Assembly: GCF_004010195.1 (NCBI RefSeq)
Contig: NC_057719.1
Location: 1,712,395 to 1,776,394, forward strand
Source: Chiloscyllium plagiosum
Lineage: Eukaryota
Direction: 5' to 3'
Length of the DNA stretch: 64,000 nt
In this document: one piece after another, positions 13,526-59,870 of the stretch
Layout of the letters: each line of letters opens with the position of its first letter
Numbering within the stretch: position 1 is the first letter of the stretch
The notes under the pieces: model-generated
Databases searched by the model: none
What the model was told of the DNA's origin: nothing
Seen by the model: the letters and a program-made list of their open reading frames with translations, nothing else
Position numbers and translations under genes: made by a program

Positions 13526-13644
13526 CAGAGATCAGAGTCTAGATTAGAGTGGTGCTGGAAAAGCACAGCAGGTCAGGCAGCATTCAAGGAGCAGGAAAAT
13601 CGACGTTTTGTGCAAAAGCCCTTCATCAGGAATGACCAGGTAGA

Positions 13645-13965
13645 TTACATTAGATTCCCTACAGTATGAAAACAGGCCCTTTGGCCCAACAAGTCCATAC
13701 CGACCCTCCGAAGAGTAACCCACCCAGACCCATTCCCCTATATTTACCCCTGACTAACGTACCCAATTCTATGGGCAATTTAGCATGGCCAAGTCATCTG
13801 GCCTGCACATCTTTGGATTGTGGGAGGAAACCGGAGCACGCGGAGGAAACCCACGCAGACACAGGGAGAATGTGCAAACTCCGCACAGACAGGCGCCCAA
13901 GGCTGGAATCAAACCCGGGTCCTTAGCGCTGTGAAGCAACAGTGTTAACCACTGAGCCACCATGC
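13645..13965 (-). mobile_element. Full-length HE1-like V-SINE
   Basis: Same family as 5857-6180. Confidence 0.88.
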
Positions 13966-14174
13966 CAGCTCTTTCCCCTGGGTTGGGGCGGACCAGATCT
14001 AGAGGGCATAGGTTTAGGGTGAGAGGGGAAAGATATAAAAGAGACCTAAGGGGCAACTTTTTCACGCAGACGGTGATGCGTGTATGGAATGAGCTGCCAG
14101 AGGAAATGGTGGAGGCTGGTATAATTGCAACATTTAAAAGACATCTGGTTGGATATATGAATCGGAATCGGAAT

Positions 14175-14853
14175 CTATCCAAGGCCCCAAAGGAGCTTTC
14201 CACATCCATCAAAGTTTTACCTGCACATCCACTAATATCATCTATTGTATCCGTTGCTCCCGATGCGGTCTCCTCTACATTGGGGAGACTGGACGCCTCC
14301 TAGCAGAGCGCTTTAGGGAACATCTCCGAGACACCCGCACCAATCAACCAAATCGCCCAGTGGCTCAACATTTCAACTCCCCCTCCCACTCTGCCGAGGA
14401 TATGGAGGTGCTGGGCCTCCTCCACCGCCGCTCCCTCACCACCACACGCCTGGAGGAAGAACGCCTCATCTTCCGCCTCGGAACACTTCAACCCAGGGCA
14501 TCAATGTGGATTTTAACAGTTTCCTCATTTCCCCTTCCCCCACCTCAACCTAGTTTCTAACCTCCAGCAGCTCGATCCCCTGACCTGTCCGGGCTTGTCC
14601 GACCTGCCCAGCTCCTTTTCCACCTATCCACTCCACCCTCTCCTCCCTGACCTATCACCTTCATCTCCTTCCCCACTGACCTATTGTACTCTATGCCACT
14701 CTCTCCCACCCCCACCCTCCTCTAGCTTATCTCTCCACGCTTCAGGCTCTCTGCCTTTATTCCTGATGAAGGGCTTTTGCCCAAAACGTCGATTTTGCCT
14801 GTCCTCGGATGCTGCCTGAATTGCTGTGCTCTTCCAGCACCACTGATCCAGAA
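14175..14853 (+). mobile_element. Penelope-like element (Neptune-type) 3' portion: GIY-YIG endonuclease plus terminal repeat with hammerhead motif
   Basis: Frame from 14177 reads IQGPKGAFHIHQSFTCTSTNIIYCIRCSRCGLLYIGETGRLLAERFREH..VAQHFNSPSHS..EEERLIFRLGTLQP; followed by a pyrimidine-rich UTR and CTGATGA-AGGGCTTTTGCCC-AAAACGTC. Confidence 0.9.
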
Positions 14854-14909
14854 TATTCTGATGGTACTTGGGGAGCACCTTCCTTAGATTAGCTTGATAG
14901 AAGTCGCCA

Positions 14910-15710
14910 GATAAATGTGAGATGCTGCATTTTGGGAAAGCAAATCTTAGCAGGACTTATACACTTAATGGTAAGGTCCTAGGGAATGTTGCTGAGCAAA
15001 GAGACCTTGGAGTGCAGTTTTATAGCTCCTTGAAAGTAGAGTCGCTGGTAGATAGGAAAGTTAAGAAGGCGTTTGGTAGGCTTTCCTTTATTGGTCAGAG
15101 TATTGAGTACAGGAGTTGGGAGGTCATGTTGTAGATGTACAGGATATTGGTTAGGCCACTTTTGGAATATTGCGTGCAATTCTGGTCTCCTTCCTATCAG
15201 AAGGACGTGGTGAAACTTGAAAGGGTTCAGAAAAGATTTACAAGAATGTTGCCAGGGTTGGAGGATTTGAGCTACAGGGAGAGGCTGAATAGGCTACGGG
15301 TTCTTTTCCCTGGTGCGTTGGAGGCTGAGGGGTAACCTTATAGAGGTTTATAAAATCGTGAGGGGCGTGGATAGAATAAATAAACCAGGTCTTTTCCCTG
15401 GGGTGGGGGGAGTCCAGAACTAGAGGGCAAAGGTTTAGGGTGAGAGGTGAAAGATATAAAAGAGACCTACGGGGCAACTTTTTCACACAGAGCATGGTAC
15501 GTGTATGGAATGAGCTGCCAGAGGAGGTGATGGAGGCAGGTACAATTGCAACATTTAAGAGTCATATGGATGGGTATATGAATAGGAAGGGTTTAAGGGA
15601 TATGGACCGGGTGCTGGCAGGTGGGACTAGATTGGGTTGGGATATCTGGTTGGCATGGACGGGTTGGACTATAGGGTCTGTTTCCATGCTGTACATCTCT
15701 ATGACTCTCT
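14910..15710 (+). mobile_element. 5'-truncated CR1 LINE to 3' tail
   Basis: LHFGKANL..RPLLEYCVQFWSP..NFFTQSMVRVWNELP; tail ctctatgactct. Confidence 0.9.
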
Positions 15711-18065: not shown

Positions 18066-19829
18066 TATCATGGATATTTGCCAGAACTGCTGCTGCTTGG
18101 ACCTCTGATACTTTAGGCTCATCTAAATAAATTTTGCTGCTTACTAAAATATCATTTTTAAATTCTCCCCTAGTAATGGTTTCCCTCACATTCTCAAAAT
18201 CTTTCTCTAAATTCAGTGATCAAAACTACTGATCATACAATATTTATTTTTCTCATGTATATTCTACAAATACTGACATATATATTAATTGATCAGCTTC
18301 ACTGACAAGCTCCTGGGCACCACTGATTGCCCCTCAGTGTCCAGTCGTTAGAAATTATTGTGCCAAATGACATGTAGAAGTTGAAGAAGTCATGTTGCAA
18401 GGTTAAGAATTATGAGACTGAATTAGACTACTCTATGGGACAAACACTTCCCATTGTTACATGAGATAACAGGTCTACACTTTGTAATGAGAGATTGCAC
18501 CAGTGCGTCATTTTGGGTGTAACAATATTCAGTGGCAGAAGTGACCAAGGTCCAAATTCGGGAAGTGAACAAGTTCATTCACTACCTGTGATGTCACCAC
18601 TGCATGATCTTTGAGTGTATCCCTGAAGTTGTGGTGGCAACAAATGCATCTCTTTTAAGATATTTCAGTCATGGTGGTCAGTTACAGAGTACATTCACAC
18701 AATTCTGCCTTGAACAAAAAATATACAAAGTTATAATGCATTTTCCTGACAACATGGACAATTGATCAGCTATGTCCTGTTCTTAAAAAGCGGGACAAAT
18801 CCGACACAATCCTACACTTCTAAACACTTGTTACTGATCATAATATAACCCTCTCCCTCAAGTACTTTCATGAAAACTGATGTTTTTCCCCTACTGAAGC
18901 CTTCCACACTGATACATACATTATTCAACAACAGCAGAAATTGCTGGAAAAACTCAGCAGGTTAGGCAGCATCTGTGGAGAGAAAGCAGAGTTAATGGTT
19001 CAGCTCCAGTGAACCTTCTTCAGAACTGATTGTAGCTCAGAAAAGCTTGGTATATATACTGAAGGGTGGGAGGGAAGGGCAAAGGAGTAAATGAAAACTG
19101 GAGGTAGAGAAGGAGAAAAATGTTTAGAATGGATATCCTGTCTGAGAGAGGAGCAGAACGTCTTCATGGTGGGCATAGCATCTGATTTCCAGCATTGGCA
19201 GTTTTTTGGAGTTTTTTTTGGTTTTTGTGTTTAACGCACTGCCACATCTCTCCCAGGTATGTCCTCCTTGAAGAAGCTAAGGACAGCAGATTTCCTTTGC
19301 TAAAGGGGCATCAATCCAATAGCTACATGGTCACCAAATCTGATACAAACTTTTATTTCAGGTTTATTTATTCACAATTTAAATAGTCCAGCTGCTGTGG
19401 TGGGATTTGAGCTCCTACGTCTGGATCAATAGTACTGAACCGATCAGTAACATAACCAAGCTCGGAACTGTTCTATAAGCATGGAGACTGCTCTCTTTAA
19501 TACTGGATACCAGACCAGTCTCCAATTCATCCCCACTCTCAAAAAAACCTGTACATGTTGGCGTTAGGAGGAATGGGAGGTGATCTTCGTTTAATGTCCA
19601 AGATTCTCAGGGGATTTGACTGGGTAGACACTGAGCAGATGTTTCCCCTCATATGGGTATCTAGAGTTAGGGCACAGTAACAGAATAAGGGTTCTCTCTT
19701 TAAAGACAAAGGTGAGGAGGAATTTAATTCTTTTGAATGACAGATGACACTAAAATAAGTGGGAAAATAAGTTAATCGATTAAGGTTAGAAGCTGAATAC
19801 TGGTCCTTAATGAATCCAAGAACCCTACA

Positions 19830-20253: not shown

Positions 20254-20432
20254 AGCAGCAGGTCAGGCAGCATCCAAGGAGCAGGAGAATCAACGTTTCA
20301 GGAATCCTGAAGAAGGGCTTGTGCCCGAAACGTCGATTCTCCTGCTCCTTGGAGGCTGCCTGACCTGCTGCGCTTTTCCAGCAACACATTTTTCAGCTCT
20401 GATCTCCAGCATCTGCAGTCCTCACTTTCTCC
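20254..20432. mobile_element. Short palindromic PLE-terminal unit with hammerhead; 15-bp TSD CAGAGGAATTGAAAG
   Basis: Inverted arms; TSD at 20239-20253 and 20433-20447. Confidence 0.85.
20302..20339 (+). ncRNA. Minimal type-I hammerhead ribozyme motif (best-formed copy)
   Basis: GAATC-CTGAAGA-A-GGGC(TTGT)GCCC-GAAA-CGTC-GATTC: stem I GAATC/GATTC, intact core, loopless palindromic stem III. Confidence 0.75.
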
Positions 20433-22560
20433 CAGAGGAATTGAAAGGCAACATATTATCTAGATGGAGAGAAACTTCACAGTGCTTTAGTGCATAGGGA
20501 TCTGGGTGTTCTCTTGCAAGAATCACAGAACACTAGTATGGATGTACAGCAGATAATAACGGACGCAAATGGAATGTTGGCATTTACTGCTAAAGGAATA
20601 GAGTATAAAGGTAGGGAAATGTTGCTGTGACTGTTGCTGTATAAGGCATTAGTGAGATTGCATCTGGAGTATTGCATGCAATTTTAATTCCTTACTTGAG
20701 ATGGGTATAGTTGTATTGGAGGCAGTTCAGAGGTGGTTCATTAGGTTGATTTTAGAGATGATTTGAAGTTGAGAGGTTTGTCTTATGAAGAGAGATTGAA
20801 CCGTTGAGGACTATACACTCTGGAGCTCAGAAGAATGCGAGAGATCTAATTGAAGTCTATAAGATGCTAAAGGGGATTGACAAAGCTGATGTTTCCTCAC
20901 GTAGGACAATCTAGAATGAGAGGTCAGAGTTTGAGGATAACGGGTAGCAGATTTAAAACAGAGATAAGGAGAAATTACTTCTGTTAAAGGAGCGTGAACC
21001 TGGAGAATTCACTCCCCCAGAGTGCAGTGGGTGCTGCTTCATTGGGTAAATTTAAAGAGGAGTTAGACATATTTTTAATTAGTAATGGGTTGAAGGGTTA
21101 AGGAGAGTGGGCAGGAAAGTGTAATTAAGGCTGAGATGAGATCAACCATGATTGTATCAAATATGGAGCACGCTCGCGGTACTGAATGGCCTACTTACAG
21201 AATCTTTGGACTGTGGGAAGAAACTGGAGCACCCAGAGGAAACCTGTGGAGAGACAAACAGAGTTAACGTTTTGGGTCCAGTGACCCTTCTTCTTCAGAT
21301 AAACCCGTCTGACACTCTCCCTGGTGTCATACTGACCGTTTTTCTTCAGTAATGAGAAGTCTCTGTGAAACCCGGTCTGTTCATACTGGTGTCTGAAACC
21401 TCAGTACTCTGCAAAGCACAACAAATGACCAAGGCAGTATTTGTTCTTTAACAGACACCACCAAAATAGACTAACCTATAATTCATCTCCCTGTGCTGTA
21501 ATGTGGGACCTTGCTGTGAAGGTTAGTTGTCATGCTCACTGTTTCTACATAACATATTGAACCCTTTGTTTGTACAGCGTTTTGAGGTGTCTTGAGGATA
21601 TGATGGAAGGTGCTTTCTTTCTAGAGCGAAATAAATAGAGAGGGCTTTAGGCTGATTGCTGCTGAAACCTCAAATCTGTGCTGATTCTTTCAAATAATCT
21701 CTTCCTTGTACTCCGAAAATGATTAGTAATTACATTTTAAAGTTAGACAGAAGCCCATGGCTTTAGGAGCAACGTTCTACTGGCTCTGGCTGGTATTGAG
21801 ACAGTCATTCAGGCTTTCAGTTTAATCCCTGGTTGGTGCAGCTCCCAGATATTCAGGTGTGACAAGGTGCCATCGTGGGCTGCTGGTGTGGTAAGTGGGA
21901 TGAGGCTGGAAGGGTGGGAGAAACGAGTGGGGACCTACGGCATCTTATAGTAAAATGCATCTGTGCTACCTGCTGCACAAACCTGACAGTGGTCTACATA
22001 CCACTTCTGCAGATATGAAGAATGCCCTAGATGATATTTATAAACACTCTGGAAGTGAAATTGCCTGGGGCTTTATACAGCTTGGCCAGCAACTTCAACC
22101 AAGCCAACCTCAAGAATGCTGCCAAAGTACCACAATCACATCTCCTGCCCCACCGGAGGACTGAACATCCCTGAAGTTCTGGTGGTAACTCCCACAAGCA
22201 TCAAAGACACCTGCTGCTCCATCCCCATCCGCCTGTTGCAAAATCAGACCACAACACTGTTCCTCCTCCCAGCTTACAAGCAGAAGCTGAAACTGGAGGG
22301 TCCTTCACAGAAATAAATACAGTGGTCGTCTGAGGTAGTGGAAGAGCATCTCTAGGGCTGTTTGGAATCAGTGGACTGTACCGCGTTCAGGCACTCAGTG
22401 AAAAACCTGACGAAGTACGCTACCACTATCACAGGCTTCATGCTGGAGGACTGCGTGCCAAAGACATCAATCCGAGTATCCTCCAACTGAAAAGCTGCAG
22501 GAGATCCATTCCCTGCTGAAGACCAGGCATGCAGCATTCAAGTCGGATGACTCAAACATA

Positions 22561-22874
22561 GGGGAGGGGCGTTGGAGGGGAGGGACCTTCCTAACCTGCA
22601 ATCTCTTCCTGACCTCTCCGCCCCCACCCCCACTCTGGCCTATTACCCTCACCTTGACCTCCCTCCACCTATCACATTTCCAACGCCCCTCCCCCAAGTC
22701 CCTCCTCCCTACCTTTTATCTTAGCCTGCTGGACACACTTTCCTCATTCCTGAAGAAGGGCTCATGCCCAAAACGTCGATTCTCCTGTTCCTTGGATGCT
22801 GCCTGACCTGCTGCGCTTTTCCAGCAACACATTTTCAGCTCTGATCTCCAGCATCTGCAGTCCTCACTTTCTCC
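22561..22874 (+). mobile_element. PLE terminal fragment with short inverted 5' piece; 13-bp TSD
   Basis: TGACTCA(A/G)ACATA at 22548-22560 and 22875-22887; hammerhead core at 22750 with GAAA changed to AAAA. Confidence 0.82.
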
Positions 22875-22964
22875 TGACTCAGACATACAGTGGAAATCCC
22901 GATATGACCTCCTCAAAGCCATCAGGGATGCCATGAGGCAATGCCTGGTCTGGGGGATTTTAGC

Positions 22965-26460: not shown

Positions 26461-27907
26461 GTGTCTTCCCTTTCTCCAACTTTCCTCTTGAGTACCAGTA
26501 GCAACTACTGTCCCTTCATACCCTTTTGCACATTTCCTCCAATCTCTCATCATAGTAAAGGTATCTGTGAAATAATAATGTTTGTTTAATGTTATTTTTT
26601 GCATGTTTTTTCTTTAAAAATGCCAAAGACTTTGTGATCCGTCTTCTGCTCAGTGGGTTCTTACCAGCAGTTTGTGACTGCTGGGCAAAGGGGTTTTCCA
26701 TTCTGCTCAGATACCTGAGGGAGTCTTTAATAGATGTGCAAATGTGGAGAAAGCTACATCTGGGGATTGGCAAAGGAGCCAGCATGGGACCATTAGATAA
26801 TGACATTCAAATGTGCTGTAGGGCTGCAGTAAATCTTTCTTCACTTATAGTTAATCTCAATTATTCTCTTTTATATCTCGACAGAAAATACTCAGTAGCC
26901 TGTGTGACTGATGAATACTTTAAGTAACTTCTATAATTTATAAAATAACAAAGTTAAAGTGTAGTGCTCAACTGTTCTCTGTATCAACACAAAAGATACA
27001 GAAGGATTGGAAGGCTGTTGTGGTATGGTGGCAGAGTCCATACCTCTGAGTCAGATGGGCTGAGTCCAAGTCCTACCTGCTCCAAATATGTATCATATCT
27101 GAACGGTTTAATTGGAAATATTCATTGAGGCATTGCAGAAAGCATACACTGAGTTTTAAGAATAATAACAGAGATGAGAAGTTGAATCTATCGGAATCGA
27201 TTGAACAGACTGGATCTCCATCTGGAAGTGGGAGGATCTGATCGGGGTTTCAAAAATTGCAAAGGGTTTGAGAGGATAGATGTAGAGAAGGCATGATCAC
27301 TTGTGAGGGAACCCAAAACCACCAATCGTAACCAGACGCTGGTTACTCATAAATCCAATGGGAATGCAGGTGAAAGCTCTTTACCCAGAGAATGGTGAGA
27401 TAATGGAACATACTGCCATGTGCAGTAGTTTAAGAATAAGAGGTCTCCCTTTTAAGACTGAGATAAGGAGAAACTATTTCAGTCAGGGTCATTCGCCTGT
27501 GAATTTTCTTCCCGAGAAGGCAATGGAGACTGGGTCATTGAACTTATTCAAGGCAGTGTGGATTATATTTTGTTGATAAACAAGAGAGTAAATGGCTATC
27601 TTGAAGTCAGTTAGATCACATGGCTGGATGCAATGCAATGGGGTGCCAACAGTATGGGTTCAATTCGCACATCGACTGAGGTTACCATGGGATTCCCACC
27701 TCTCCCTTTGCCTGAGACCTAGTGAACCCCAGGTTAAACTCACCACCAGTACTGTACCTTTAATGAGAGAGCAGACCTTTGGTCAGATAAGAGTATCTTT
27801 ACCTTTTTATACCAAGGGCTATGGGTATGACTCCATGAGATTTGGAAAGGTGATAATTGTATTTTTGAAGCTAATTCCCAAATTAAAGGAATGGCTTGGA
27901 GGTGGAT

Positions 27908-28093
27908 AATGTGTTGCTGGAAAAGCACAGCAGAGCAGGAGAATCGACGTTTCAGGCATGAGTTTCCTGAAGAAGGGCTTATGCCTGAAACGTCGATTCC
28001 CCTGCTCCTTGGATGCTGCCTGACCTGCTGTGCTTTTCCAGCAACACATTTTTAAGCTCTGATCTCCAGCATCTGCAGTCCTCACTTTCTCCC
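27908..28093. mobile_element. Palindromic PLE-terminal unit with hammerhead core (27967-27994)
   Basis: Inverted arms; CTGAAGA-AGGGCTTATGCCT-GAAA-CGTC. Confidence 0.82.
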
Positions 28094-32216: not shown

Positions 32217-32219
32217 TTT

Positions 32220-33192: not shown

Positions 33193-33231
<39 letters not shown>

Positions 33232-43486: not shown

Positions 43487-44565
43487 AAAAATAGGAGGAC
43501 TTGCTAAAACTACACAAGGCACTAGTAAGACCCCAGCTTAAGTGCTGTGAACAGTTTTGGGCCCCTTCTGTAAGGGAAGATATACTGACATTGTCCAAAG
43601 AAGATTCATGGTTTATGCCTATACTCACTGAAGTTTAGAACAATGAGAGGTGCCATTATGGAAACACAGATTCTTAGGGGACTTGTCAGTAGATGTGGAG
43701 AGATTTTTTCTAGTTGTGGGAGAGTCTCGGACAAGAGACCTCATCTTAGAATAAGGGGTCAAACATTTTGGACCAAGATGAAGAGGAATATCTTCTCTCA
43801 GAGGATGATGAGTCTGTAGAACTCCTCAGTGCAGAGGGCTGTAGAGGCTGAGTCATTAAAGGATATTTGAGGCTGAGATAGACTTTTAATCAGTAAGCTA
43901 GGAGTTGGGGGATAAGGCAGGAAAGTGGAGTTGAGAATTATCAGATCAGCCATGATCTTTTTAAATGGCAGAACATACTCGATAAATCTGAAACAAAAAT
44001 CCTGAGTGTCACTGGACCTGAAAATGTTAACTCTGCCTTCTCTCCACAGATGCTGCCAGACCTGCTGAGTTTCTCCAGCAATTCCTGTCTGTTGCATTTA
44101 TTCTCACCCTGTTTTGAAATCGCACTTGTCTACTTTTCCTTAGAACCTATGGAATCCTGCAAACTGTTCCCTCTCTCCATCATCTCCATTCCCACAGCCA
44201 TCCACAATATCTATGCTGCTCTAATTCTGGCCTCCACACCATCCCTGGTATTAATTGTTGGCTGTAATTTCGGCTGTTTAATTTTTCTATATCTTCCTAC
44301 TTCTCTCTCTCCTTCCTCCTTCCAGAAATGCTGTTTCAAACTCATTTTTTTGATTAAGCCTTGTCTCCTCTGATCTAGATACCCTAATGTGACTCTGTAG
44401 CGCATTGTGTTTTCTTCCCCTCCTGTAAAACATCTTTGGGCGTTGTTTCAGACACAATAAATACACAGAAGGTTCTGCTTTTGATTGCCTGCATGACAAA
44501 CCCTTACCTTTGAGTCACTTGGAGCAAGAGGACTTAATGTCAACAAATCTCCGTTTCTTTCAAAG

Positions 44566-44840
44566 CCCAGAAAATCATCTAAGAAACGTGAGCCAATCCG
44601 AGCCAGCACCGCAGGGGAAGCCATAGAGAAAATGCTGGAGCAGAAGAAGATCTCGAGCAAGATAAATTACGATGTGCTGAGGGATCTGAACAGCAAGGGG
44701 AGCAGCACACCAACCCGGGAGGAAAGTGACAGCAGTAACCGTGGCGGCAGTAACAGCCGCAGCAAGAAGGGACCAGCCCACCGAAAGTCAGCCGCAAACT
44801 CCCGAAGCCTTGCTACACCCGTCAACAACCTGGGCAAGAG
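44566..44840 (+). CDS. BRF1: BRF1 internal coding exon (275 nt, phase 0 to 2): [45 protein letters not shown]...TPVNNLGK(R)
   Basis: Acceptor tttctttcaaag, donor AG|gtacag. Contains the hallmark BRF1 motif [21 protein letters not shown] 44632..44913 is this exon read into the intron. Confidence 0.95.
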
Positions 44841-46282
44841 GTACAGTTACCATCTCATGCAGAGTAGTGTCGACAGTTGGCTTCATCCAGTGTTAAATGT
44901 TGAGTATCAGTAAACCCGTGTGTCTAATGTATTTTGGCTTACATCAGATAGCTGGGACTGGGCTTCCTGATGCCTTGGTCAATAGACACTGCCATTTCTT
45001 GATGCTCAGGTTTATGGGGAATAGATGGATGAGATGTGACTAATTGGTTAGCTCTTTCAAAGAGATGACACATACACGATGGGCTAAGTGGTCTTCTGTG
45101 CCAAATGATTCTATAATAATATAACATTACACCTAGCTGTGTGCACAAGGAAGGAGTGTGCTTCAGTATGCACTTTTGAGCAGTTAGTTCATGTAAGTTC
45201 ACAAGGTGATGGAGGCATTTGAGAGTCCTGATGCTGAGGTAGATAAACAAAGTCAGGTTAGAGTCACTGCTCATTATTGCATACCTTCTCGTGGAAAACA
45301 AAATTTGTCTGATTCCAGGCGAATAGTTGATAACGAACGGAAATGTTCAGAAGTTAGTGGCACTTAAGGTGAGGAAGGGAATGGGTTCAGATCAAATCTG
45401 TAATGCAACAGCAGTGGGGATCCAGTAACAGTGATCAGTTTAGAGAGAGAGATCACGTCAGCTATCCTGTGAGATGAGAGCTCTCTCTCCCATTCACAAA
45501 CAAATGGTTCCAAGTGATAGAATCAGGCAGTTTGCTTCAGTTTGCCCAGAAATGTGAAACAGTTAAAGTTGAGTCTAACTCCTGACTCACAATGCAAATG
45601 ACACACTCACGTTGACATCTTCACCCCCCCCCCCCGACTCATCTGACTAATCTCCAGGCATGACTACACCTAACCCTGCCACCTCACTCAGCTCCCCGCT
45701 CTATCACTCCCCCTCTCCCCCCACCAATTTAGTAGCAATCATCTGCTCCCTAATTGACTGACATCTAAACTGCAAGTACTAGCTCATGCCATTAAAAGGG
45801 ACATGTCCAAGTCTTTGCCTGTAGCTCTGGGGATACTTAGGGCACAGCGCCCACCATATTTCTCGTAAAGCTGATTCAGACGGTCCTGGAATGCAGAGCA
45901 GTATGGGGGTTTTTCAAGGGAGAAGGCAACGTGGCAACCATTGTATTCCTCCAAGTATCTAGGCTGCTGATACACAGGTTGAATTTTGTTTTTAATTAAT
46001 TCTCTGTGTGTATCTGACTGGTTCCTCATGTGTGTTTTTTCCCAAGGTGACGTACCAACCCATTTTTGTAAAGCTGGCAATCTGTTTGAAATGACAGATT
46101 TGAAACTTTGCATAGATTGCTTCAAAGTTCTAATCCTGAAACAAAACTGAGCTTCAGTGGAAGAGAAATTGTAGCTGCAAGCGTGGTTGAATATTTTAAA
46201 GGTGGAGATAGATAGTTGTTATAGAATAGAATCAAATGTTATCATGGATTGGTGGGAATGTGGAAATCGGAACTTAGCAAGT

Positions 46283-46400
46283 TTTGAGAAGATTTGTACG
46301 TTGAGGTTCTGGATGTAGGTTTGCTTGCTGAGCTGGAAGGTTCATTTTCAGATGTTTCATGACCATACTAGGTAACATCTTCAGTGAGCCTCTGGACATC
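46283..46400 (-). mobile_element. PLE terminal fragment related to the 43143 family, degraded hammerhead
   Basis: Reverse strand CACTGAAGATGTTACCTAGTATGGTCATGAAACATCTG..CCAGCTCAGCAAGCAAACC..ACAAATCTTCTCAAAAC. Confidence 0.7.
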
Positions 46401-46629
46401 CAGAATTGGAATTTAGCTAAATGGATCAGCCAAAATCTTACTGAATGGCAGAGCAGGCTTGAAAGGCTGATTGGGCTACTTCTATATCGTATCTAATCCA
46501 TGTGTTTGTGTGAAGTATCTTCCTGTGACCATCAGAGTACAGAATCCTCTTCAATCCCCTATCCTGATGAAGTGACAAAGAGATTCACATTCATTTCTCG
46601 ATTGTAAAGGCTACCTGTGATGGTGTTTT

Positions 46630-46920: not shown

Positions 46921-49689
46921 TTAAATTTCTCCTTCCACTTAAATCACTGATCTCTTATTTTTAAATAGTGTCCCCTAGATCTGGAAAGTAATTAGGTCAC
47001 ATGGGATGGAAAACTGTATTTCATCCACTTAATTCATAATAATTTCAACTTTCTACTCATGATTCAAAGTTTAATTTCTTTCTTCAAAGCTGGACTACTG
47101 GGATTGATCACAGTGTCAGTTACTCAATTCATTTTTATGTTTTCACGATGATGAAACGCCTTTGTCCTATTCTGTCTTCCTTGACTGCTATAAGTTGATG
47201 ACAAAGTTAAAGCCATCTGATACCAGTCTTTGATTTATCATCTTAATTATTCAGAAATACTGCATATAGTTTGAGACCTCAGTCTTAAAGCGGGATGCTC
47301 GTGTATTGAAGACAATTCAGGTAAGGTTCACTCGGCTAACTCCTGGAGTGATGGGCTGGCCTTATACAGAAAGCAGGTTGACCCGATACTCATTGGAGTT
47401 TAGAAACAAAAAGTTCCATTTGCAACTGTACAGGTACCAGAGCAGTCAGTGTCCTTATGCAGCCAGATCTATGTGGGTGCAGGTCCAATAATACTCCAGA
47501 AGCTCAGCGTCATCCAGGACAATGCAGCCTTTTTGATTAGCAGCGCAGTCACCACCGTCACTCCCTTCATCACCAACACACAGGAGCAACAGTGCAAACT
47601 ATGTACAAAATACACTGCACAAACTCACCAAGGCTCCTCTAACTGCAACTTCCAAACATGCAACCGGTACCTGTAAGGGTAAGAGGGCTGGCACGAGCTC
47701 AGTAAATATACTGAAAGCACAGTTAGATTGATTTTAAATCAACAAGGAAATTGAAGGTTGCAAGAGACATGCAGGAAGTGACTATGAAGCAAACATCTGA
47801 TCAGCCACCATCTGATTGACTGGTACAGCATGCTCAAAGGGCTGAAAGGCCTACTGCTCTTTATTATTCTCTAACAGTTCAGCATTTGATTTACTTTTGA
47901 GATAATTAAGCATCATTCCAGATCATCCTGAAATCAATGTCAGCTGCTTAATCTGCTCATCCTTGACTTTGGGAATGACCTCACCTTCAATTGGTACATG
48001 TCTGTGTGGTCCAGGAATAGCTTTGTAATAATAATCATGGTCTAAAAAGCCATCAGCAAAAAGCACAGATGAGGTGTGTAGTCAGCTATAATCTCCACCG
48101 GAGACAAATTAGGTCAACGAGTCCTTGCAAAGAGTGCTAAAAATAAGTGTGTCAGAGGTTGCTGTCCAGCTCTGATAGCTGTCAGTGTTAATATTAGTAC
48201 AGAACCTGATTCTCTCCTCTCCTCATCCTGCCCCAAACCTGTCTTAGTTCAGGGCTGTGTTTCTCTCTCAGCTGCTTACTCCAATCAGAATTAATGGCAG
48301 ATGACTGTATACCAGCCATTAGTGCATTGGTTTACATGAATATTTAATATTTCCTGGTGGGATGTTGCACGTACTCTGCTTTGTGACGGGCTGTTTGACT
48401 GCAGCTGGCCCAGACCACAGAGTTTCATTTTTATTGTCGTCTTACCTCCTTGCCCTGCCCTGAAACACTCAGATAATTCTGTAAGCTCTAACATGAGTCC
48501 CTGTGTAAGTTTATTAAATGTTTACGGACAGGCTTTTGAACTATGCAGGTCATCTCGGCAGAAATGCAACCAGTACTCGCCTATTGTATACCCATTTACT
48601 TCCAGCAAGCATCATTAGGTTGGAATTATGAGTGGGAACTTTGGCTGAGCAGCTCCCTGCTCAGGAACATCCTTATGTTCTTTTCCTCCGGCATGCTCTC
48701 CATACATGATCCCATCCCATGTTCCTACCTCTTCAAGATGCTTGTGCAGATCTGTTTAGAAAAAGCCAATCCAATAAAACCTTCACTCTAAGAAAACTTA
48801 TTTTCCTTTATTTGCCCTAGTTGACCAGAAACCCCTTGCAGAGTTTTGCTTTAATATACATTTTCACGCCACCTCTGTTGTCCTATGTTATATTGATGAA
48901 GTGTCTGACACAGGATCACAGGGCACAGACTGAGCTGCATCCACTCGTATGTCTGGCCTAAATCAACTAGTGCAGGCAGAGAAAGAATTGAAGCATTGCA
49001 GTTAATTGAAGTGCTTTTTAGTACGGAGAAAGATAATTGAGTTAAGGTTCCCAATCCATTTCTCTGCCCAGTTTCTATATGAGTGTATCCGTGTGTGCAT
49101 ACTCTGTGTAATCCTGTGAATCAGTTTTTTTGTATATATCCATATGAAGTTGTTCGTGTGTGGTGGTCACATCCATGGGTGTCTGGCTGAATATGTATGT
49201 GCTGTCCACATATTGTGCACTATCTACTGGTTACATACTAAGACCTCTACAACTCAACCATGTCATCAGTGTCCTGCAACAGGATTATGAGGCCAGTCAC
49301 ACACTTTCAGAATCACAGAATGATTCCAGCACTGAAGGAGAGAAGTTTGGCCTGTCAGGTCTGTGCCAGCCTTCCAAGGAACAGTTTACCAGTTCGACAA
49401 CACTTTTTTTCCCAGTAATCCTGCGTATTCTTCCTTCACTGATAATCCAGTTCCCTCCGAAATAAAAGCAAAAACTATGACAAAGGGTCAGTTAGACTCG
49501 GAACGTCAGCTCTTTTCTCTCCTTACAGAGAGGCTGCCAGACCTGCTGAGGTTTCCCAGCATTTTCTCTTTTGGTTCCCTCCTAAATAACTTGATGGAGC
49601 TTGTCTCCAAACTCTCAGGTAGTGCACGACAGCTCCTGACTGCTCTCGGTGAAAATGTGATTCCATGTTACCATCGCTTCTTTTGCTAA

Positions 49690-51133: not shown

Positions 51134-51271
51134 AGGAGAAAGTGAGGACTGCAGATGCTGGAGATCAGAACTGAAAATGTGTTGCTGGAAAAGCGCAGCA
51201 GGCCAGGAAGCATCCAAGGAGCAGGAGAATCGACGTTTCGGGCATGAGCCCTTCTTCAGGAATGGCTCATA
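51134..51271 (-). mobile_element. Single PLE terminal unit with intact hammerhead core; 13-bp TSD
   Basis: TTAGAGATA(C/T)TGT at 51121-51133 and 51272-51284; reverse strand CTGAAGA-AGGGCTCATGCCC-GAAA-CGTC. Confidence 0.85.
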
Positions 51272-53112: not shown

Positions 53113-53127
53113 GGTAGGATCCCTATT

Positions 53128-53222
53128 CTCCACAACCACCTGATGAAGGAGCAGTGCTCTGAAAGATAGTGCTTCCAAATAAACCTGTTGGACTATAACC
53201 AGGTGTTGTGTGATTTTTCACT
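53128..53222 (+). mobile_element. PLE terminal fragment of a third family with hammerhead motif
   Basis: CAC-CTGATGA-A-GGAGC(AGT)GCTCT-GAAA-GATA-GTG followed by AATAAACCTGTTGGACTATAACC. Confidence 0.75.
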
Positions 53223-55989
53223 GGATAGGGAAAGTCACTCCATAACTGTAAGCTTCTCCTTATTTATGCTGTGTTCAAGTTCTCCATGCACAATAATCTA
53301 GCCTGACATGATTGAGGGAGAGTTACACTGCCAGAGGTATGTTCAACTGAGTCCCTGTCTGCAGGTCAGGGTTTCACTAATTGTATAAACAATACAGTAG
53401 TGGACAAGTTCTCCTGCTATCTTGGCTGACAATAGTCCCTCACCCAACAGCAGTGGTAACTAATCACCATTCTGATGCAAGGCCCTGAAAAGACTTGAAT
53501 TTTTAATTGTTTTTCTCCCTACAGAATATGCTGCTTGGCCTGCTGTGTGCTTCCTATATTCTCTGCTTTATTTCAGGTCTTCAATATCTGTAATACTTTG
53601 CTTTTATAGCAACTAGCCATTTTTTCTGAACTACTGTTTGTAAAACCTCATGTGTCTATGTTGGACATTAATTAATCTGTTGCAGACATTAATTCATAGG
53701 CTGTACCGTGCTATGGGATAAACTCTGAGATAAGTCATTGAATGTAACTTTGTGATGTAGATGTGAGATGTGATAAACCACTAAATCAGTGCTGTTACTC
53801 TTAGGTACACTGTGTGCAGTGGAATTGAATGATGCAGTTTGAAGGCCCAAGGTTTGCTGTTTGCACTGTGCTGTGCCTTCTAGTCTAATTATCGTGACAG
53901 GAGACATAGAAACATTGGCTTCTTTGTGCCTGGGTGAGTAATCAGCTGGATTATTCACTGAGGGTAGGAAAGCCAACTTGAGTATCTCCTGCTCCTGCAA
54001 GTATTATCCACAGTATGTGCAGCAGCACCATGTTATCTTTGATGATGCATCCCATATCCATGGCCCCTGCAAATCTAGATGGACAGTACAACAGGTGTAT
54101 CACCACCAGCTGCAAATCCCTCTGCATTCATACAGCACCATCTCTAGGTCAGCTGTTTGTCTGTCATTGCTGGGTCACTCTCCCTTGCATTTTCATTACC
54201 TGCACTGCAGTGGTTCAGGAAGAGGGCATTCAATCACATGGTCAAGGTAAAACTGGAGATGTGACAATAAATAGTGACCTTGCCAGCATTTAGGAATGAC
54301 TATATCAAAACATCTCTTCCTGTTGTTGATCAGTATCTGATAGCCCAATGCTGTCAAGTGAGGACAGGATAGATTAGACAAAAATACCAGCGTTTATCTG
54401 GTTTTTCTTCTGTCATGTGCTAAAAGACTGAAAAACTTGTTTTTTTAGCCTCATTGCTGATCTCAGGATGTCCCAAAGAAAGTCGTAACGAACCAGTTAC
54501 CTTTTTGAAATGGAATCACTGTTATATAGGAAATGCAGCAAATAGTTTATGATAGCAAACTCCATAAGCAGCAGATGTTAATTGAGGGATAAATGTTGGG
54601 CAGGAAACTTTCTGTTTCAGAAAGTGCAGTCAGATCTTTGTAACCTAGCTGAGAGATCAAAAGCAATCTCAATTTTTTGTCTCAGTTGCTGGACAATATC
54701 TGAGTATTTCGGTGAAAGAGTCTGCCTAGATCTTTTAATTTGATGATAATAGACTAATCAAAGCAATCAGTCTTCATCAATGAGACTGCAACAGACCCAA
54801 ACATGAGGTGAGGAAAGCCTCCAGTGGGCAGACTTTGAAAATCATAGGTCCAGAATCACATGTTCCCCATCACTCATCATGTCTCCAAATACTGTGTCCC
54901 AAAATGTTATTTCTTCAATAAAATCTGTCCAATTCACTACTTGTGCAAAGGTGATTCTAGTGAATGGACAATAAAGAAATGGAGAATGACATTGGTGAAT
55001 TGCTCATTCAGAGAGTCAGCATTGATGTGATGTATGGAATGGCCTCTTTCTGCTCTGTTCCAGTTCTACAATTCTGTGATAGCGCTCATGCTGCTAGACC
55101 AACTTGCGGTCTTTTGATCTATGTGGCTTGACTCCACAATGTACTGCGAGACCTTCAATCAGTGCAGTCAGCAGTGTGTAGGTGGAATATTTGCTGTCAA
55201 GTGCAGATGAAGCTGTAGGTGGAATTCAGAGTAGAGAAGCTGAGGGTTTTGATGTTGCAGTAAATTTCCTCTATCAATGTGCTTTCATTTTCCTTTCCCG
55301 CTGGTGATGATTAGCCCCAGCAGTTCAACACTTGATATTATAACTCAGCTAGCTGTGTCTGGACAGAATAATGTACTGTGTCGTGACTTGTTGTTCTGCC
55401 CTAGTTCTCCTGAAGCAATCTCTGTCTAGAGCTTGGTGCTGAAGCAGAGGTGGGGATCCATGTATGTGCAAGGATAGAGACCACACTGTCTCTGAAGGGT
55501 GTCCAGGTTCCAGACACCAGAAATCGTTTCATGCTCCCTTCATGCTTGAAAAAATACCATATGCTGAGATATGTTTTGTTTTTAAAAGGAGATAGATGGT
55601 GACTTGTACTACTCAGAGAGCTGGTCAATCCAAATGACCTCTCTGCTTTCTGATTTTGTAGTTTGACATGTCTGTATCAATGCAGCAGTGTGGGACGCTA
55701 ACAGTTCAGAGTCTCTGAACCTATTCAGACCTCGTCTTTAACCTGAAGACATTGACTTCTGCTTGAGGTTCAATTCTATATGAAGCCTTTGTCACTCAAA
55801 TCTTCATTATTTCTGTCTCAGTTAACTCTTTGGCAAATAAAAGCAAAATACGATGGATGCTGGAAATCTGAAATAAAAACAAAGTGCTGGAAAAACTCAG
55901 CTTGTCTGGCACCAACTATGGAGAGAGAAACAAAGTTAATGTTTCAATTGCAAAATGAATCCTCAAAACCTGCAGTAAGTGTTTTCAAA

Positions 55990-56712: not shown

Positions 56713-56714
56713 AG

Positions 56715-57245
56715 TGAGCTGATTTCTGAAGTCCCTGTGCTGTAGGTTGACTTATCATGTTCTTGGGAAGGAATTCCAGGATTCTGACCCAGTGACACTG
56801 ATGGAACAGCGACATATTTCCAAGTCAGGATGGTGAGTGGCTTGGAGGAGAACTTGCAGGGGGTGGTGTTCCCATGTATCTGCTGCCCTTGTCCTTCTAG
56901 TTGGAAGTGGTCATGGGTTTGGAAAGTATTATCTAAGGATCTTTGGTGAATTTCTGCAATGCATCTTGTAGATGGTACGCTCTACTGCTACTGAGTGTCG
57001 GTGGTGGAGGAAGTGAATGTCTGTGGATGTGGGGCCAATCAAGTGGCTGCTTTGTCCTGGATGGTGTCAAGCTTCGAGTGTGTTGGAGTTACACCCATCC
57101 AAGCAAGTGGAGAGTATTCCATCACACTCCTGACTTGTGCCTTGTAGATGGTGGGCAGGTTTGGGAGAGTAAGAAAGTGAGTTACTCACATTTCGAGCAG
57201 TATTCCTAGTTTCTGACCTGATTTTGTGGTCTCTGTATTAATATG
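56715..57245 (-). mobile_element. LINE (CR1/L2 group) 3' fragment; related copy at 58720-59870
   Basis: Shared blocks caagtcaggatggtgagtggcttggag and gagtattccatcacactcctgacttgt (reverse: QVRSVMEYS). Confidence 0.75.
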
Positions 57246-57339
57246 GAACTTGGAGTTGGAAGGGAGGGATCCAGTTTTCATTATCCGTGTTGCTCCCAGT
57301 AACATTGACTGGTCTAGTTAGGAGGTTCTGCTGAAAGAA

Positions 57340-58680
57340 ATGGACTGAGGCTCCGTAGCCATATAGGGTAGATAATTCTTAAGATTCATCACCCCTGCGT
57401 AAAATAGTTTCTCAGTCCTAAATTACACACCTCTTAATTTTAAATTCTGCTCCCTACGTCTGGACTTCCCAACCAGGGGATACATCTTTCCTATCTATCC
57501 CTTTTCAGGTATTTTGTAAGTTTCAATGAAACCACCCTGATTCTTTGAAACTCTAGAGAATATAGGCTGAGTTTGCCCAATCTGTCTTCATGGATAGTCC
57601 CACCATCCCAGGAGCTCATCTGATGAATGTGTATTGCACTCTCTCTTGGCGATCAGTTCATTACTAAGATAAGGAAACCAAACCTGCTCGCAGTGATCCA
57701 GGGTGATCTAATCAAGCTCCTATACAAGTGAAGCAAGACTTCACTACTCCTCTACTCAAATCCTCTTAAAGTAAAGGCTAACATTTCGTTAGCCTTCCCA
57801 GTAGATTGTTGCTCCTCTTGTTAGCCTACAGTGATTTATCAACAAGGACACTAGGTGCCTTTGTACATCAAGATGAAAGTGAGAACTGCAGATGCTGGAG
57901 ATAAGTCAAGAGTGGTGGTGCTGGAAAAGCACAGCACCTCAGGCAGCGTCTGAGGAACAGGAAAATCAACATTTTGGGCAGGAGCCCTTCATCAGGAATG
58001 ATCATCCTGATGAAGGACTCCTGTCTGAAATGTTGATTCTCCTGCTTCTCAGATGCTGCCTGACCTGTGCTTTTCCAGCACCACTCTAATCTTGACCCTT
58101 TGTACATCGATACTGTCCAATCTCTCAGCATTTTTAAAAATCCTCTGCACATCTGCTTTTCCTTCCAAAATGGATGATCTCACACTTTTCCACATTATAT
58201 TCTATCTGTCATGTTCTTGACCACTCACTAAGCCTGTCAAATCCTCCTGAAGCTTTTCTTTACATTTTCTTTACCCCACACGTTCCCATTTAGCTTTGTA
58301 TCATCCACAAATTTCAAAATAATGCATTCAGTCCCCACGTTCAAATTGTTGTTCTAAATAGTGAATGGCTGGGGTGCAAGTACTAATCCATGTGGTACCT
58401 CACTAGTCACTGACTCTCAATACATGAATTACCCATTTATTTTATATGCTGTTTTCTGTATTCGCCTATCATTAATCCATGCCCATACATTACCTCTGAT
58501 CACATGTGCTTTCATGTTTCTATCCCGCCTCCTGTGGGGGACCAAATCAGAAAGCTGCTTAAAATCCAAGTATACAATTTCATAAGCTTTCTTATCAAAT
58601 GTGTTGTTAGCATCTTCAAAAAACTCCAAAAGGCTAATTAAACATGGCTGTCCATTCTCAAATCTATGCTGACTATGACA
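57340..58680 (-). mobile_element. Old CR1 with nested PLE palindrome (57870-58096; 12-bp TSD CCTTTGTACATC)
   Basis: ORF 58429..58629 EFFED..VYLDF..DLVPHRR; TSD at 57858-57869 and 58097-58108. Confidence 0.82.
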
Positions 58681-58719
58681 ACAAAGGTCATTGTCACCGA
58701 GGGTCTATTTATCCCTTTT

Positions 58720-59870
58720 TTTTTGTTAAGTCACTCATGGTGTAGGCATTGCTGGCTAGGTTCAGCATTTATTGCCTGTCCCAAGTTTCCCCTTGAGAAG
58801 GTGGGAGTGAGCTGTCTTCTTGAACCGCTGCAGTCCATGTGGTGTAGATTGACTGCAGCAGGCCAGGCAGCATCCAAGGAGCAGGAGAATCAACGTTTTG
58901 GGCATAAGCCCTTCTTCCTGAAGAAGGGTGTATGCCCGAAACGTCGATTCTCCTGCTCCTCAGATGCTGCCTGGCCTGCTGCACTTTTCCAGCAACACAC
59001 TTTTCAACTCTGGTCTCCAGCATCTGCAGACCTCACTTTCTCCCCGCTGTAGGTTGACCCACAATGTCCTTAGGGAGGGAATTCCGGGATTTTGACCCAG
59101 CAACACTGTAGGGAAGCAGTGACATATTTCCCAAGTCAGGATGGTGAGTGGCTTGGAGGGGAACTTGCAAGGGGTGGTGTTCCCATGTATCTGCTGCCCT
59201 TGTCCTTCTAGGTGGTAGTGTGCACAAGTTTGGAAGGTGCTGCCTGAGGAATCTTGTGAGTCAGAAACATAGGAAGTAGGTGCAGGATTAGGCCATTCAG
59301 CCCTTCGAATCTGCTGCACTATTCAATGTGATCGTGGCAAATCTTGCAGTTTCAATATCCTACTCCTGCTTTCTATCCATAGCTCTTGATCCGATTAGCT
59401 ACTTATGCATTTGCAGTGTCTCTTGTAAATGGTACACTGCTGCTGCTCAGTGACAGTGGTGGACAGAAAGGATGTTTTTGAATGTGGTGCTTTTACATGG
59501 TTGGTGTCAAGCAGCTTGAGTATTGTTGGAGCTGCATCCATGCAGGCAAGTAGGGAGTATTCCATCACACTCCTGACTTGTACCTTGTAGATGGTGGACA
59601 GGCTTTGGGGAGCCAGGATGTACTCAGTGCAGGGCTCCTAGCCCCGACCTGATCTTGCAGCCATTGTATTTATGTGGCAAATCTAGTTCAGTTTCTGGTC
59701 AATGGTAACGCCCACAGTTTGATAGTCAGCGACAGTAATGTTATTGAATGTCAAAGGATAATGTTAGATTCTTTCTTGTCGGAGTTGGCATTTGTGTGGC
59801 ATGAATGTTACTTGCCGCTTTTCACCTTAGCCTGGATCTTGTACAATCGTGCTTAATTTCAACATGAATT
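58720..59870 (-). mobile_element. LINE 3' fragment with nested PLE palindrome (58854-59045) and a CR1 tail (about 59260-59400)
   Basis: Intact hammerhead core at 58918; imperfect TSD TGTAG(A/G)TTGAC. Confidence 0.75.

Follow-up and report, generated by a model that had tools for sequence, protein, structure and literature searches.

What are the many hammerhead-like motifs in the BRF1 region of the shark Chiloscyllium plagiosum, how did they arise, and do they cut the RNA of their host gene? We analyzed a window of 64,000 nt (GCF_004010195.1, NC_057719.1 positions 1,712,395-1,776,394, forward strand), in which a first-pass annotation had listed about 20 motifs. With a probability of roughly 0.8, we conclude that these are minimal type-I hammerheads in PLE end repeats, carried by short insertions, either solo or head-to-head, which are decaying, are predicted to be inactive in BRF1 pre-mRNA and are likely products of internal priming and run-off.

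A strict descriptor (CTGANGA-N9..22-GAAACGTC) gave 7 matches in the window, five on the + strand (20307, 27967, 31389, 37630, and 58918) and two on the - strand (37133-37160 and 51232-51259), versus 0 in 100 dinucleotide shuffles used as control. A looser descriptor returned 12 matches with the exact core against 0-2 per shuffle, and 13 with one mismatch against 0-3 (12 shuffles in each case). A family-A profile, itself built from the 16 full arms, recovered all of them at E<=2.4e-22, and its best match in the reversed window had E=2.3. In an Rfam search no hammerhead family scored above its gathering threshold or appeared among the 18 matches at E<=10. Each of the 24 motif positions listed earlier lay inside a hammerhead-bearing repeat unit, and the "older traces" matched the family-A profile with E=6e-10 (19000), E=7e-8 (40520), E=0.005 (5190), and E=0.04 (21265). 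The listed motifs are real, but they are not so many independent insertions: because many belong to head-to-head pairs, the 24 motifs amount to 19 insertion events. The list was also incomplete, lacking the units at 38137-38188, 44003, 49481, and 55877 as well as two partial left arms (20254 and 27905). Four of the six cores described as intact are fully so (20307, 37630, 58918, and 51259); those at 27967 and 31389 are not, because a G-U replaces the G10.1-C11.1 pair.

The core boxes CUGANGA and GAAA..UH are present around helix II (chance 0/100 shuffles). Core identity between families was 0.93 compared with 0.25-0.30 in the flanks, a value that is partly circular since the core had served as search key; the refuting case set by the first-pass annotation, in which cores would be no better conserved between families than their flanks, was thus not borne out. 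Helix I pairing was required by none of the searches, and its first three pairs formed in 14 of 15 cases across five families (not all independent, since B and C are related) versus 21/60 in cross-family controls; four pair types occurred at 2.1-1.1 or 2.2-1.2, and covariation was observed in both helix I and helix II. In all ten representatives an unpaired base separates positions 9 and 10.1, nine have G10.1 (A in the degenerate 40542 copy), and position 11.1 is C in four and T in six. The helix III palindrome ACGU is the majority form in family A and is also found in B 43254 and E 40542; it is broken in C, D, B 43383, and E 19023. These core, bulge, and helix tests bear out the proposed minimal type-I hammerhead with a loopless ACGU helix III, and the proposed minimum of three PLE families holds as well, the motifs falling into families A, B, C, D, and E. 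The C11.1-G12 CpG has lost C11.1 or G12 in 10 of 16 family-A arms. Non-CpG core sites carried 0 substitutions outside junction clips, versus 24 differences in 25 flank sites, a contrast that mostly reflects subfamily differences; some selection on copies is possible.

Three units retain the end of an ORF and tie the hammerheads to PLEs. At 14174..14854 (+), within a CR1-type LINE fragment, lies a 5'-truncated Neptune-type PLE of subfamily A3, composed of a GIY-YIG coding stretch (14174-14500; Pfam E=2.2e-5), a pyrimidine-rich 3' UTR, a hammerhead at 14763-14790 that has lost G12, and a short end. The coding stretch is 91% identical to P0121, an RT+GIY-YIG protein of Chiloscyllium punctatum, and has all parts of the CCHH motif (C-x2-C, H, H), supporting the Neptune-type link proposed for 14763. 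The copy begins just past the RT-EN linker, whose zinc finger was read in P0121 as C-x4-C-x2-C; a C-x2-5-C-x2-C finger marks the Neptune clade and is also common to Nematis. An RT domain was seen only in the relatives P0121 and P0173. The second unit is a long A2 head-to-head pair at 37036..37721, between mapped BRF1 exons, with the last codons of a GIY-YIG ORF in its center (80% to 14471-14545, E about 1e-12) and two hammerheads, one with a broken helix II at 37133-37160 (-) and a fully intact one at 37630-37657 (+). The third is a Poseidon-type head-to-head pair of family B at 43143..43455 with a 12-bp duplication, in which an ORF end (43268-43396) overlaps into the hammerhead at 43383-43416 (+); this motif and its partner at 43221-43254 (-) have one core-region change apiece. 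The ORF end is 79% identical over 43 aa to the final 43 residues of P0173, another C. punctatum RT+GIY-YIG protein (E=1.8e-11), which as read in this relative has a CCHH endonuclease but lacks a zinc finger in the linker, a Penelope/Poseidon trait. P0121 and P0173 are 22% identical, and Neptune and Poseidon are described as the sole PLE clades of the vertebrates sampled in 10.64898/2026.07.22.740005. Sequence comparison thus supports two hammerhead-bearing PLE lineages in the window, Neptune-type (family A) and Poseidon-type (family B). The first-pass annotation had overlooked the latter, as well as the pairing of many motifs as arms of one insertion.

The other family-A units are shorter. Solo stubs lie at 13522..13635 (-; hammerhead 13602-13629, G12 lost, helix II mismatch), at 31384..31483 (+; an A3 stub of about 100 nt in a CR1-type fragment, hammerhead 31389-31416 with intact core and G-U at 10.1-11.1, 16-bp duplication 31368-31383/31484-31499), and at 51134..51271 (-; an A1 stub with full tail, 13-bp duplication, and a fully intact hammerhead at 51232-51259 antisense to BRF1). 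A stub without core at 38137..38188 (-) begins about 14 nt 3' of the cut site and has a long flanking duplication. The A1 copy at 22561..22875 (+) keeps ~160 nt of native upstream sequence, a hammerhead at 22750-22777 (G12 lost), a full tail, and a 13-bp duplication. Six further units are head-to-head pairs. That at 20254..20432 has a right arm with a fully intact hammerhead (20307-20334, +) and tail, a left arm without helix II, and a 15-bp target-site duplication (20239-20253/20433-20447). The pair at 27905..28092 has a hammerhead at 27967-27994 (+) with intact core and G-U at 10.1-11.1, its left arm beginning in loop II, and both hammerheads of the pair at 29455..29675 are mutated (29517-29544, -; 29549-29576, +). 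At 29772..29953, with a duplication of about 16-18 bp, the junction clips the hammerhead 29834-29861 (-) at C3, and the right arm has no core. An older pair at 57872..58096 has two mutated hammerheads (57968-57995, -; 58007-58034, +) and a 14-bp duplication, and the pair at 58854..59043 has an intact hammerhead at 58918-58945 (+), a clipped and mutated left arm (58892-58917, -), and an 11-bp duplication.

Family C, related to B, is represented by a stub at 46279..46407 (-) with a mutated hammerhead (46351-46384) and a 10-bp duplication, and family D by its sole copy in the window, at 53119..53220 (+; hammerhead 53140-53168). Family E, which has a downstream segment in common with family A, comprises an older stub at 18934..19026 (-, C3 at 19023), a stub at 40459..40545 (-) lying antisense about 60 nt ahead of a BRF1 splice acceptor, a remnant at 21243..21291 (-) that has lost G12 and is fused to another repeat, a stub with incomplete core at 44003..44089 (+), and degenerate stubs at 5115..5206 (-, a profile match), 49481..49570 (+), and 55877..55958 (-). 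Within the window we found no ORF link proper to D or E, and no full-length PLE copy in partial tandem. Twelve of the 16 full family-A arms have no upstream PLE sequence. The earlier phrase "mostly non-coding units" is therefore apt as description, but the units are truncated ends of PLEs rather than a family of their own.

The ends of the insertions are informative about their origin. Duplications of at least 10 bp flank 10 of the 19 units examined, and all 8 head-to-head pairs have a tail (one long end) on one side only. The 5' starts of full arms fall in 12 of 16 cases at -26 to -34 from the cut site, within 6 nt of the core start (C3 = -28; binomial p 3e-11 on a 125-nt null). With the A1 copy at 22561..22875 as reference for reads drawn from the whole genome, RNA depth was 198 at 22742 versus 718 at 22763, and 75 loose ends lay at 22746, their letters resembling the inverted arm. 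The genome-wide reads have the same upstream edge as the window arms. Counted from the cut site, their 3' loose ends cluster at +54 to +58 (22831-22835) and at +96 to +99 (22873-22876); the two 3' clusters are about 35-40 nt apart, and tail duplications of 33-35 nt were seen in reads. Base 22746 is the A of an initiator-like YYANWYY, found at the same place in all four long copies; alone this match is weak, native upstream sequence holding 3-9 of them per copy. Starts in families B and C lie 8-10 nt upstream of C3, where no clear initiator occurs. The end positions of mapped reads included no RNA 5' end at -32, and dimer self-cleavage ends did not pile up in a library that shows such ends poorly. 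In D. virilis, Penelope starts about 120 nt upstream of an intron end abutting helix I, not at the hammerhead. The three bases at the shark edge are also ATT, the preferred cut of the Anolis enzyme as described in PMC11167929.

Because the edge lies upstream of the cut, cleavage cannot set it, and we favor a probable origin by run-off at the RNA's 5' end. Against it count the lack of an RNA 5' end at -32, the weakness of the initiator match, the ATT at the edge, and the different starts in D. virilis and in families B and C. The enzyme likely primes inside uncleaved RNA and runs off a little beyond the hammerhead. Inverted pairs would arise when both staggered nicks serve as primers. Short copies, ending where the RNA begins, would come from priming in the transcript's first repeat, and long copies from priming in its last; selection on the ribozyme would be confined to master elements. 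Internal priming at two tail-defining sites, use of uncleaved RNA, and dimer- and protein-dependent cleavage are all described in published accounts (PMC4209133, PMC11167929, PMC3846280, 10.1101/2021.04.23.441226). In its most specific form, which we put forward tentatively, the stubs may be strong-stop-like PLE cDNAs: the transcript would start at the first base of helix I, priming would occur about 90 or 130 nt downstream, and uncleaved RNA would be copied to its end, twice per site in inverted pairs. If so, this genome would be a several-hundred-thousand-copy record of PLE RNA starts and of templates escaping self-cleavage, and the most hammerhead-rich among those we found described.

The edge might instead be set on DNA, by a GIY-YIG endonuclease that cuts the element's cDNA or a copy already resident at the ATT just ahead of the core, or by a cDNA that folds back on self-complementary bases at this place, either event seeding the inverted arm. 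Each of the three long + copies checked has an ATT 4 nt upstream of C3, the Anolis Poseidon PAc is reported to cut 5'-ATT-3' most often 3' of the ORF-pLTR junction (PMC11167929), junction palindromes are interpreted as self-priming in PMC3846280, and inverted pairs make up 7 of 13 family-A insertions. However, no short ends fall at the other upstream ATT sites (2-6 per copy) in this window, solo stubs that lack a full inverted arm (13629, 31389, and 51259) share the same start, and the in-core ends (-26 to -28) are offset from ATT, so we regard this alternative as somewhat unlikely. Less probable still is that the 100-130-nt stubs form a self-propagating non-autonomous family, with an initiator and an enzyme-binding tail, whose short RNA is recopied by PLE proteins. 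The prevalence of short forms (12/16 full arms) would fit, as would the at most about 28% of core-covering RNA reads that reach upstream of -36, the internal promoter of D. virilis Penelope (PMC2377424), and the presence of the unit in very large numbers of contigs of two species. Yet every one of the subfamilies A1, A2, and A3 includes long copies, native upstream sequence retained, whose shared part is nearly identical to that of short copies (4/73 sites differ between 22750 and 51259), so no stub-only lineage is seen; moreover, 5' ends spread over 9 nt, 3' ends fall at two positions, and mapped reads have no pile-up of RNA starts or ends, a weak test. Non-LTR retrozymes, in which tandem hammerhead repeats cleave themselves out and move as circular RNA, derive from PLE end repeats and were found in one chondrichthyan sampled in 10.64898/2026.07.22.740005. 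For this window they are largely refuted and very improbable: none of the 8 tandem arrays listed contains a hammerhead unit, units start ahead of the core and reach the tail rather than spanning cut site to cut site, head-to-head pairs cannot dimerise in cis, and copies have ORF ends and target-site duplications.

PLE hammerheads are a kind already known (Cervera and De la Pena 2014, PMC4209133), of which the shark stubs are a further member. As described there, metazoan min-HHRs are likewise type I with no helix III loop, a palindromic 15.2-16.2, an extra base between 9 and 10.1, and a G10.1-C11.1 pair, with several families per genome; they are mostly single motifs from truncated PLEs, with opposite-strand pairs 100-700 bp apart. 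The shark motifs are unlike them in helix length (helix II 4-7 bp, helix I 2-4 bp). In the portion consulted, neither the text nor supplement file 2 of that paper names a shark, and 5' end clustering is not described there. The highest vertebrate counts it gives are about 4,000 in coelacanth and 9,000 in Xenopus, and scaling up the window density would give about 3-4 x 10^5 strict matches with a descriptor that differs from theirs. PLE hammerhead stubs are likely to be unusually abundant in this region; if the density holds genome-wide, published vertebrate counts would be exceeded tens of times over, and the copies would make up a large natural data set. Endonuclease-bearing PLEs, as presented by Arkhipova 2013 (PMC3846280) and Craig 2021 (10.1101/2021.04.23.441226), similarly have 5' truncation, an adjacent inverted copy with palindromic junction, a 30-40-bp tail on one end, and target-site duplication, whereas most whole shark insertions are 100-230 bp with junctions on the upstream edge of the hammerhead. 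Like PAc (Frangieh 2024, PMC11167929, in the portion consulted), the shark elements have two 3' end positions 3' of the hammerhead, AT-rich flanks, uncleaved ribozymes inside insertions, and a cut site free of RNA ends; in contrast, they are mostly Neptune-type, their 3' ends lie at about +54 to +64 and +96 to +100, and they are known here from sequence and reads, PAc from biochemistry. Non-LTR retrozymes (Li 2026, 10.64898/2026.07.22.740005) are, by that account, also non-coding and type I with a PLE end-repeat origin, but they are tandem direct repeats, unlike the solo or head-to-head shark units with duplications and tails. The model of 2014 has hammerheads cut and circularise PLE RNA (PMC4209133), and in vitro work of 2024 has uncleaved RNA as template (PMC11167929), in the parts of these papers that we draw on; copying went past the cut site in every core-bearing shark stub, which speaks for an uncleaved template. 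The sharp upstream edge in turn gives a base-level prediction of the PLE transcript start.

Do any of these motifs act on BRF1? Protein matches placed + strand exons for residues about 446-467 (34479..34540), 467-495 (38933..39014), and 495-513 (40608..40663), with residues about 513-605 at 44566..44840 (Pfam BRF1 E=3e-12). Five of the 24 motifs (37132, 37630, 40520, 43221, and 43383) do lie between mapped exons, as the first-pass annotation had placed them all; the intronic place of the others is inference, since the window yielded no match to residues 1-445 and 607-689 of a shark BRF1. No strand preference relative to BRF1 was seen among solo stubs (7 sense, 10 antisense, p=0.63). Folded in context with ViennaRNA, which scores neither the hammerhead tertiary fold nor protein help, helix I had a probability of <=0.015 in all nine sense copies, and helix II was lost in five of them, so that the hammerhead is predicted not to form on the sense strand. 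It is very unlikely, in our estimate, that intact sense copies pair across kilobases of BRF1 pre-mRNA and cut as domesticated intronic ribozymes. Five sense-strand copies do keep all core bases, and a cofold model lets isolated motifs dimerise via ACGU, but four of the five are in inverted pairs predicted to bury them, and in the fifth, helix II is weakened and a competing rod fold is predicted. Cores also show heavy CpG decay, hundreds of RNA reads span the cut site, and in published work min-HHRs show weak cleavage even when arranged as adjacent dimers, while the PAc hammerhead requires protein (PMC11167929 for PAc). The sense-strand copies in BRF1 pre-mRNA are therefore predicted to be mostly unable to cut host RNA, and no effect on BRF1 is indicated. 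The earlier annotation had missed that decay, or predicted burial in hairpins, affects most copies, and annotators may note that the head-to-head pairs are likely to mimic microRNA hairpins.

We inspected the sequence at all 24 positions at which the first-pass annotation had placed minimal type-I hammerhead motifs, and the motifs are genuine: a strict pattern matched 7 times in the window versus 0 times in 100 dinucleotide shuffles, and a descriptor requiring helix II gave 12 exact-core matches versus 0-2 in 12 shuffles. A family-A profile recovered 16 full arms (hammerhead-bearing ends of Penelope-like elements, PLEs) at E≤2.4e-22, these being the same arms from which the profile was built, together with four partial arms and older relatives; in the reversed window, which served as control, the best match had E=2.3. 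Two regex matches (35235 and 59244) lacked both helix II and homology and were discarded as chance. Rfam hammerhead models expect a helix III, and among the 18 Rfam matches in the window, all under the gathering score, the hammerhead family was absent. The observation is real and well supported, and the kind of element is already known. The estimate of about 20 motifs needs qualification: all 24 are real, and they represent 19 insertion events.

By sequence comparison, the motifs fall into three lineages (A with E, B with C, and D), in agreement with the proposal of at least three PLE families. Family A comprises 13 insertions with 20 arms and at least the subfamilies A1-A3. The older family E has 7 clear stubs (short truncated insertions) and shares a downstream segment with A; B and C are mutually related, and D is unrelated to the others. 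The PLE proteins encoded in the window match Chiloscyllium punctatum entries. The A3 copy at 14174-14854, whose 5' extent reaches 14174, carries the hammerhead at 14763 and a GIY-YIG stretch with a CCHH motif, 91% identical to P0121, a C. punctatum protein with a reverse transcriptase (RT) and a C-x4-C-x2-C linker. This linker zinc finger is described as a mark of Neptune and Nematis in 10.1101/2021.04.23.441226, and the earlier assignment of 14763 to a Neptune-type PLE is supported. The A2 pair at 37036-37721 retains the final codons of an ORF similar to that of A3. The B arm at 43268-43396 is 79% identical to the last 43 residues of P0173, a second C. punctatum protein with RT and CCHH endonuclease that is only 22% identical to P0121 and, since it lacks the linker finger, is of Poseidon type. 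For families D and E, no ORF link was found within the window. At 43268-43400, in family B, the ORF extends into the hammerhead, crossing its first half and terminating within helix II, so that the same bases are both coding and structural. The N-terminal 16 residues of the predicted protein P0173 have a match at 3379-3426 (E=0.003), which is probably a repeat fragment absorbed into that gene model.

In all 10 representatives examined, one base separates A9 from helix II, a known feature of PLE hammerheads (PMC4209133). Helix II varies from 4 to 7 bp and differs in sequence between families. Helix I pairing, which was part of no search pattern, holds at 14/15 of the first three positions in the five families, the closing pair being C-G, A-U or U-A; with upstream and downstream strands mixed between families, the figure was 21/60 (Fisher p=6e-5, with B and C non-independent). 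Core identity between families was 0.93, compared with 0.25 and 0.30 in the flanks, a contrast that had been predicted and is partly circular. Because helix I is maintained with varied base pairs around a conserved core, we infer that the ribozyme fold was selected in the master elements.

The individual copies are mostly decayed. Three CpG sites lie in the core region, and C11.1 or G12 is lost in 10/16 family-A arms; genome-wide, G12 is retained in 716/842 RNA reads and, by contig depth, in 81% in one species and 75% in another. Fully intact copies number four (20307, 37630, 58918 and 51259). In sense-strand context, the predicted fold formed helix I in 0/9 plus-strand copies (probability ≤0.015) and lost helix II to the inverted arm in 5/9. 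Full neutrality of the copies may nevertheless sit poorly with the non-CpG core sites, which show 0 substitutions outside junction clips against 24 differences in 25 flank sites, a contrast inflated by subfamily differences. In the A3 copies 31389-31416 and 14763-14790, the 5' core box is predicted to pair with the sequence surrounding the cut site; the resulting rod fold would hold the monomer inactive.

Target-site duplications of 10-18 bp flank 10 of the 19 units examined. Eight insertions are head-to-head pairs (two inverted arms in one insertion), each with one long-ending and one short-ending arm (8/8); family A ends lie at +97 to +100 (long) or mostly at +53 to +64 (short), counted from the cut site. 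We aligned reads to the region 22450-22960 around an A1 reference copy (22561-22875); 2,663 of 12,955,460 reads of RNA run X21, the source of all RNA figures here, aligned, as did 116,078 contigs of one species and 85,946 of another, while a second run, X22, gave 0 reads and carries no information. The loose ends listed form two clusters, +96 to +99 and +54 to +58, accompanied by 33-35-nt tail duplications. The inverted copy and one-sided tail match published PLE insertions (PMC3846280 and 10.1101/2021.04.23.441226), and the two 3' end clusters agree with the two internal priming sites reported for PAc, the Poseidon PLE of Anolis (PMC11167929). As the hammerhead occurs in no tandem array of the window, the units are not retrozymes. 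Two-copy tandem duplications occur at 29953-30099 (74 bp), starting at the target-site duplication of the insertion 29772-29953, and at 33034-33427 (204 bp). A core-less 52-nt stub, 38137-38188 inside 38049-38277, has flanks duplicated over 74 exact bases (~89 past one mismatch), far exceeding the 10-18 bp of the remaining insertions. One solo stub carries eight additional bases at its 5' junction (51264-51271) that match helix II/loop II in reverse complement, possibly a vestigial inverted arm. RNA reads over the tail 22828-22863 are ~2.5x commoner in one mate direction, possibly through oligo-dT priming on A-rich flanks.

The arms share a sharp upstream edge. Among the 16 full arms, twelve have their first base at -34 to -26 (C3 lies at -28), and four reach 160-590 nt upstream; this clustering is significant (p=3e-11, 125-nt uniform null), although the full arms were picked for core content, which places downstream starts outside the count. 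The starts of the four partial arms (29866 and 38188 among them), determined by visual inspection, lie at about -31 (one), in loop II (two) and at +14 (one). RNA depth rises from 198 at 22742 to 718 at 22763, and among the loose ends listed 75 reads switch at 22746 to letters resembling an inverted arm (agreement 0.4); part of this break may reflect divergence of other subfamilies.

Ribozyme cleavage cannot create this edge, which lies ~30 nt upstream of the cut site, and of the 20 family-A arms just one (38188) has a clear start downstream. Each edge-starting stub was copied across the cut site, so its template RNA was uncut, as for PAc in vitro (PMC11167929). A splice acceptor, as in D. virilis, is rejected because neither A1 nor A3 has an AG adjoining the edge and the solo stubs have no upstream sequence in common. 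Stalling of the RT on the folded ribozyme is unlikely, as it would be expected to halt copying on the 3' side. At 22746 lies the A of a sequence resembling the initiator consensus, found at the same place in 4/4 long copies, each of which has 2-8 other matches. We tentatively favor, with a probability of about 0.4, an edge set by run-off at the first base of the transcript: the enzyme would prime in the first repeat and run off at the RNA's first base. An endonuclease cutting at the ATT that overlaps the initiator-like sequence, or a fold-back, would also set an edge there, which we consider somewhat less likely. No pile-up of RNA starts or ends was seen at the candidate edge places in X21, a weak test given its fragmented poly(A) single-cell library. 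The edge is of interest for the testable prediction that it offers, as is the likely density of the motifs.

Extrapolated to a genome of 3-4 Gb, a size assumed from whale shark estimates (2.8-3.7 Gb), the 7 strict matches per 64 kb correspond to ~3-4 x 10^5. The 2014 vertebrate counts, obtained with a different descriptor, were ~4,000 in coelacanth and ~9,000 in Xenopus (PMC4209133). The contig numbers fit a very large family, although copy number is not derivable from them; the 16 listed units make up 5.9% of the window. A search of the openly accessible literature, outside Repbase, Dfam and supplement file 1 of PMC4209133 (which may list sharks), turned up no description of shark PLE hammerheads. 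We also drew on 10.64898/2026.07.22.740005, PMC2377424, PMC6155905, PMC6765202, PMC8969392 and PMC8455134.

Four BRF1 exons lie on the plus strand between 34479 and 44840, that at 44566-44840 being 94% identical to catshark BRF1. BRF1 residues 1-445 and 607-689 found no match in the window, and the stretches on either side of the mapped exons, 34 kb before them and 19 kb after, are therefore probably long introns. The description of the motifs as scattered through BRF1 introns stands for the 5/24 that lie between mapped exons; the remainder lie in the stretches on either side and are probably intronic. Depletion of sense copies was not seen in the window, where solo stubs (7 sense, 10 antisense) show no strand bias. 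An antisense family E stub (40459-40545) ends ~60 nt upstream of the acceptor of a 56-nt BRF1 exon.

The inverted pairs at 29803-29895, 37278-37455, 57950-58052 and 58860-58977 match microRNA precursors under the Rfam gathering threshold and are a likely source of false microRNA annotation. On 22450-22960, A>G differences occur at 19 places in RNA reads versus 5 in each DNA run, T>C at 17 versus 12 and 10, and C>T at 25 versus 14 and 16, the DNA runs being from other animals. At 22764, G is found in 104/431 reads of one direction and 16/288 of the opposite one, compared with 1.3% of DNA depth. Either A-to-I editing of the inverted pairs or a small number of strongly expressed loci could account for these differences. 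A 190-nt SINE-like repeat recurs at 1-190, 5990, 13780, 19957 and 35653. The window also contains many LINE fragments with RT and endonuclease matches (e.g., 6930-7790, 12403-13327, 31058-32217 and 60155-61888), and two PLE stubs sit within such fragments, which are putatively CR1-type by their Pfam matches.
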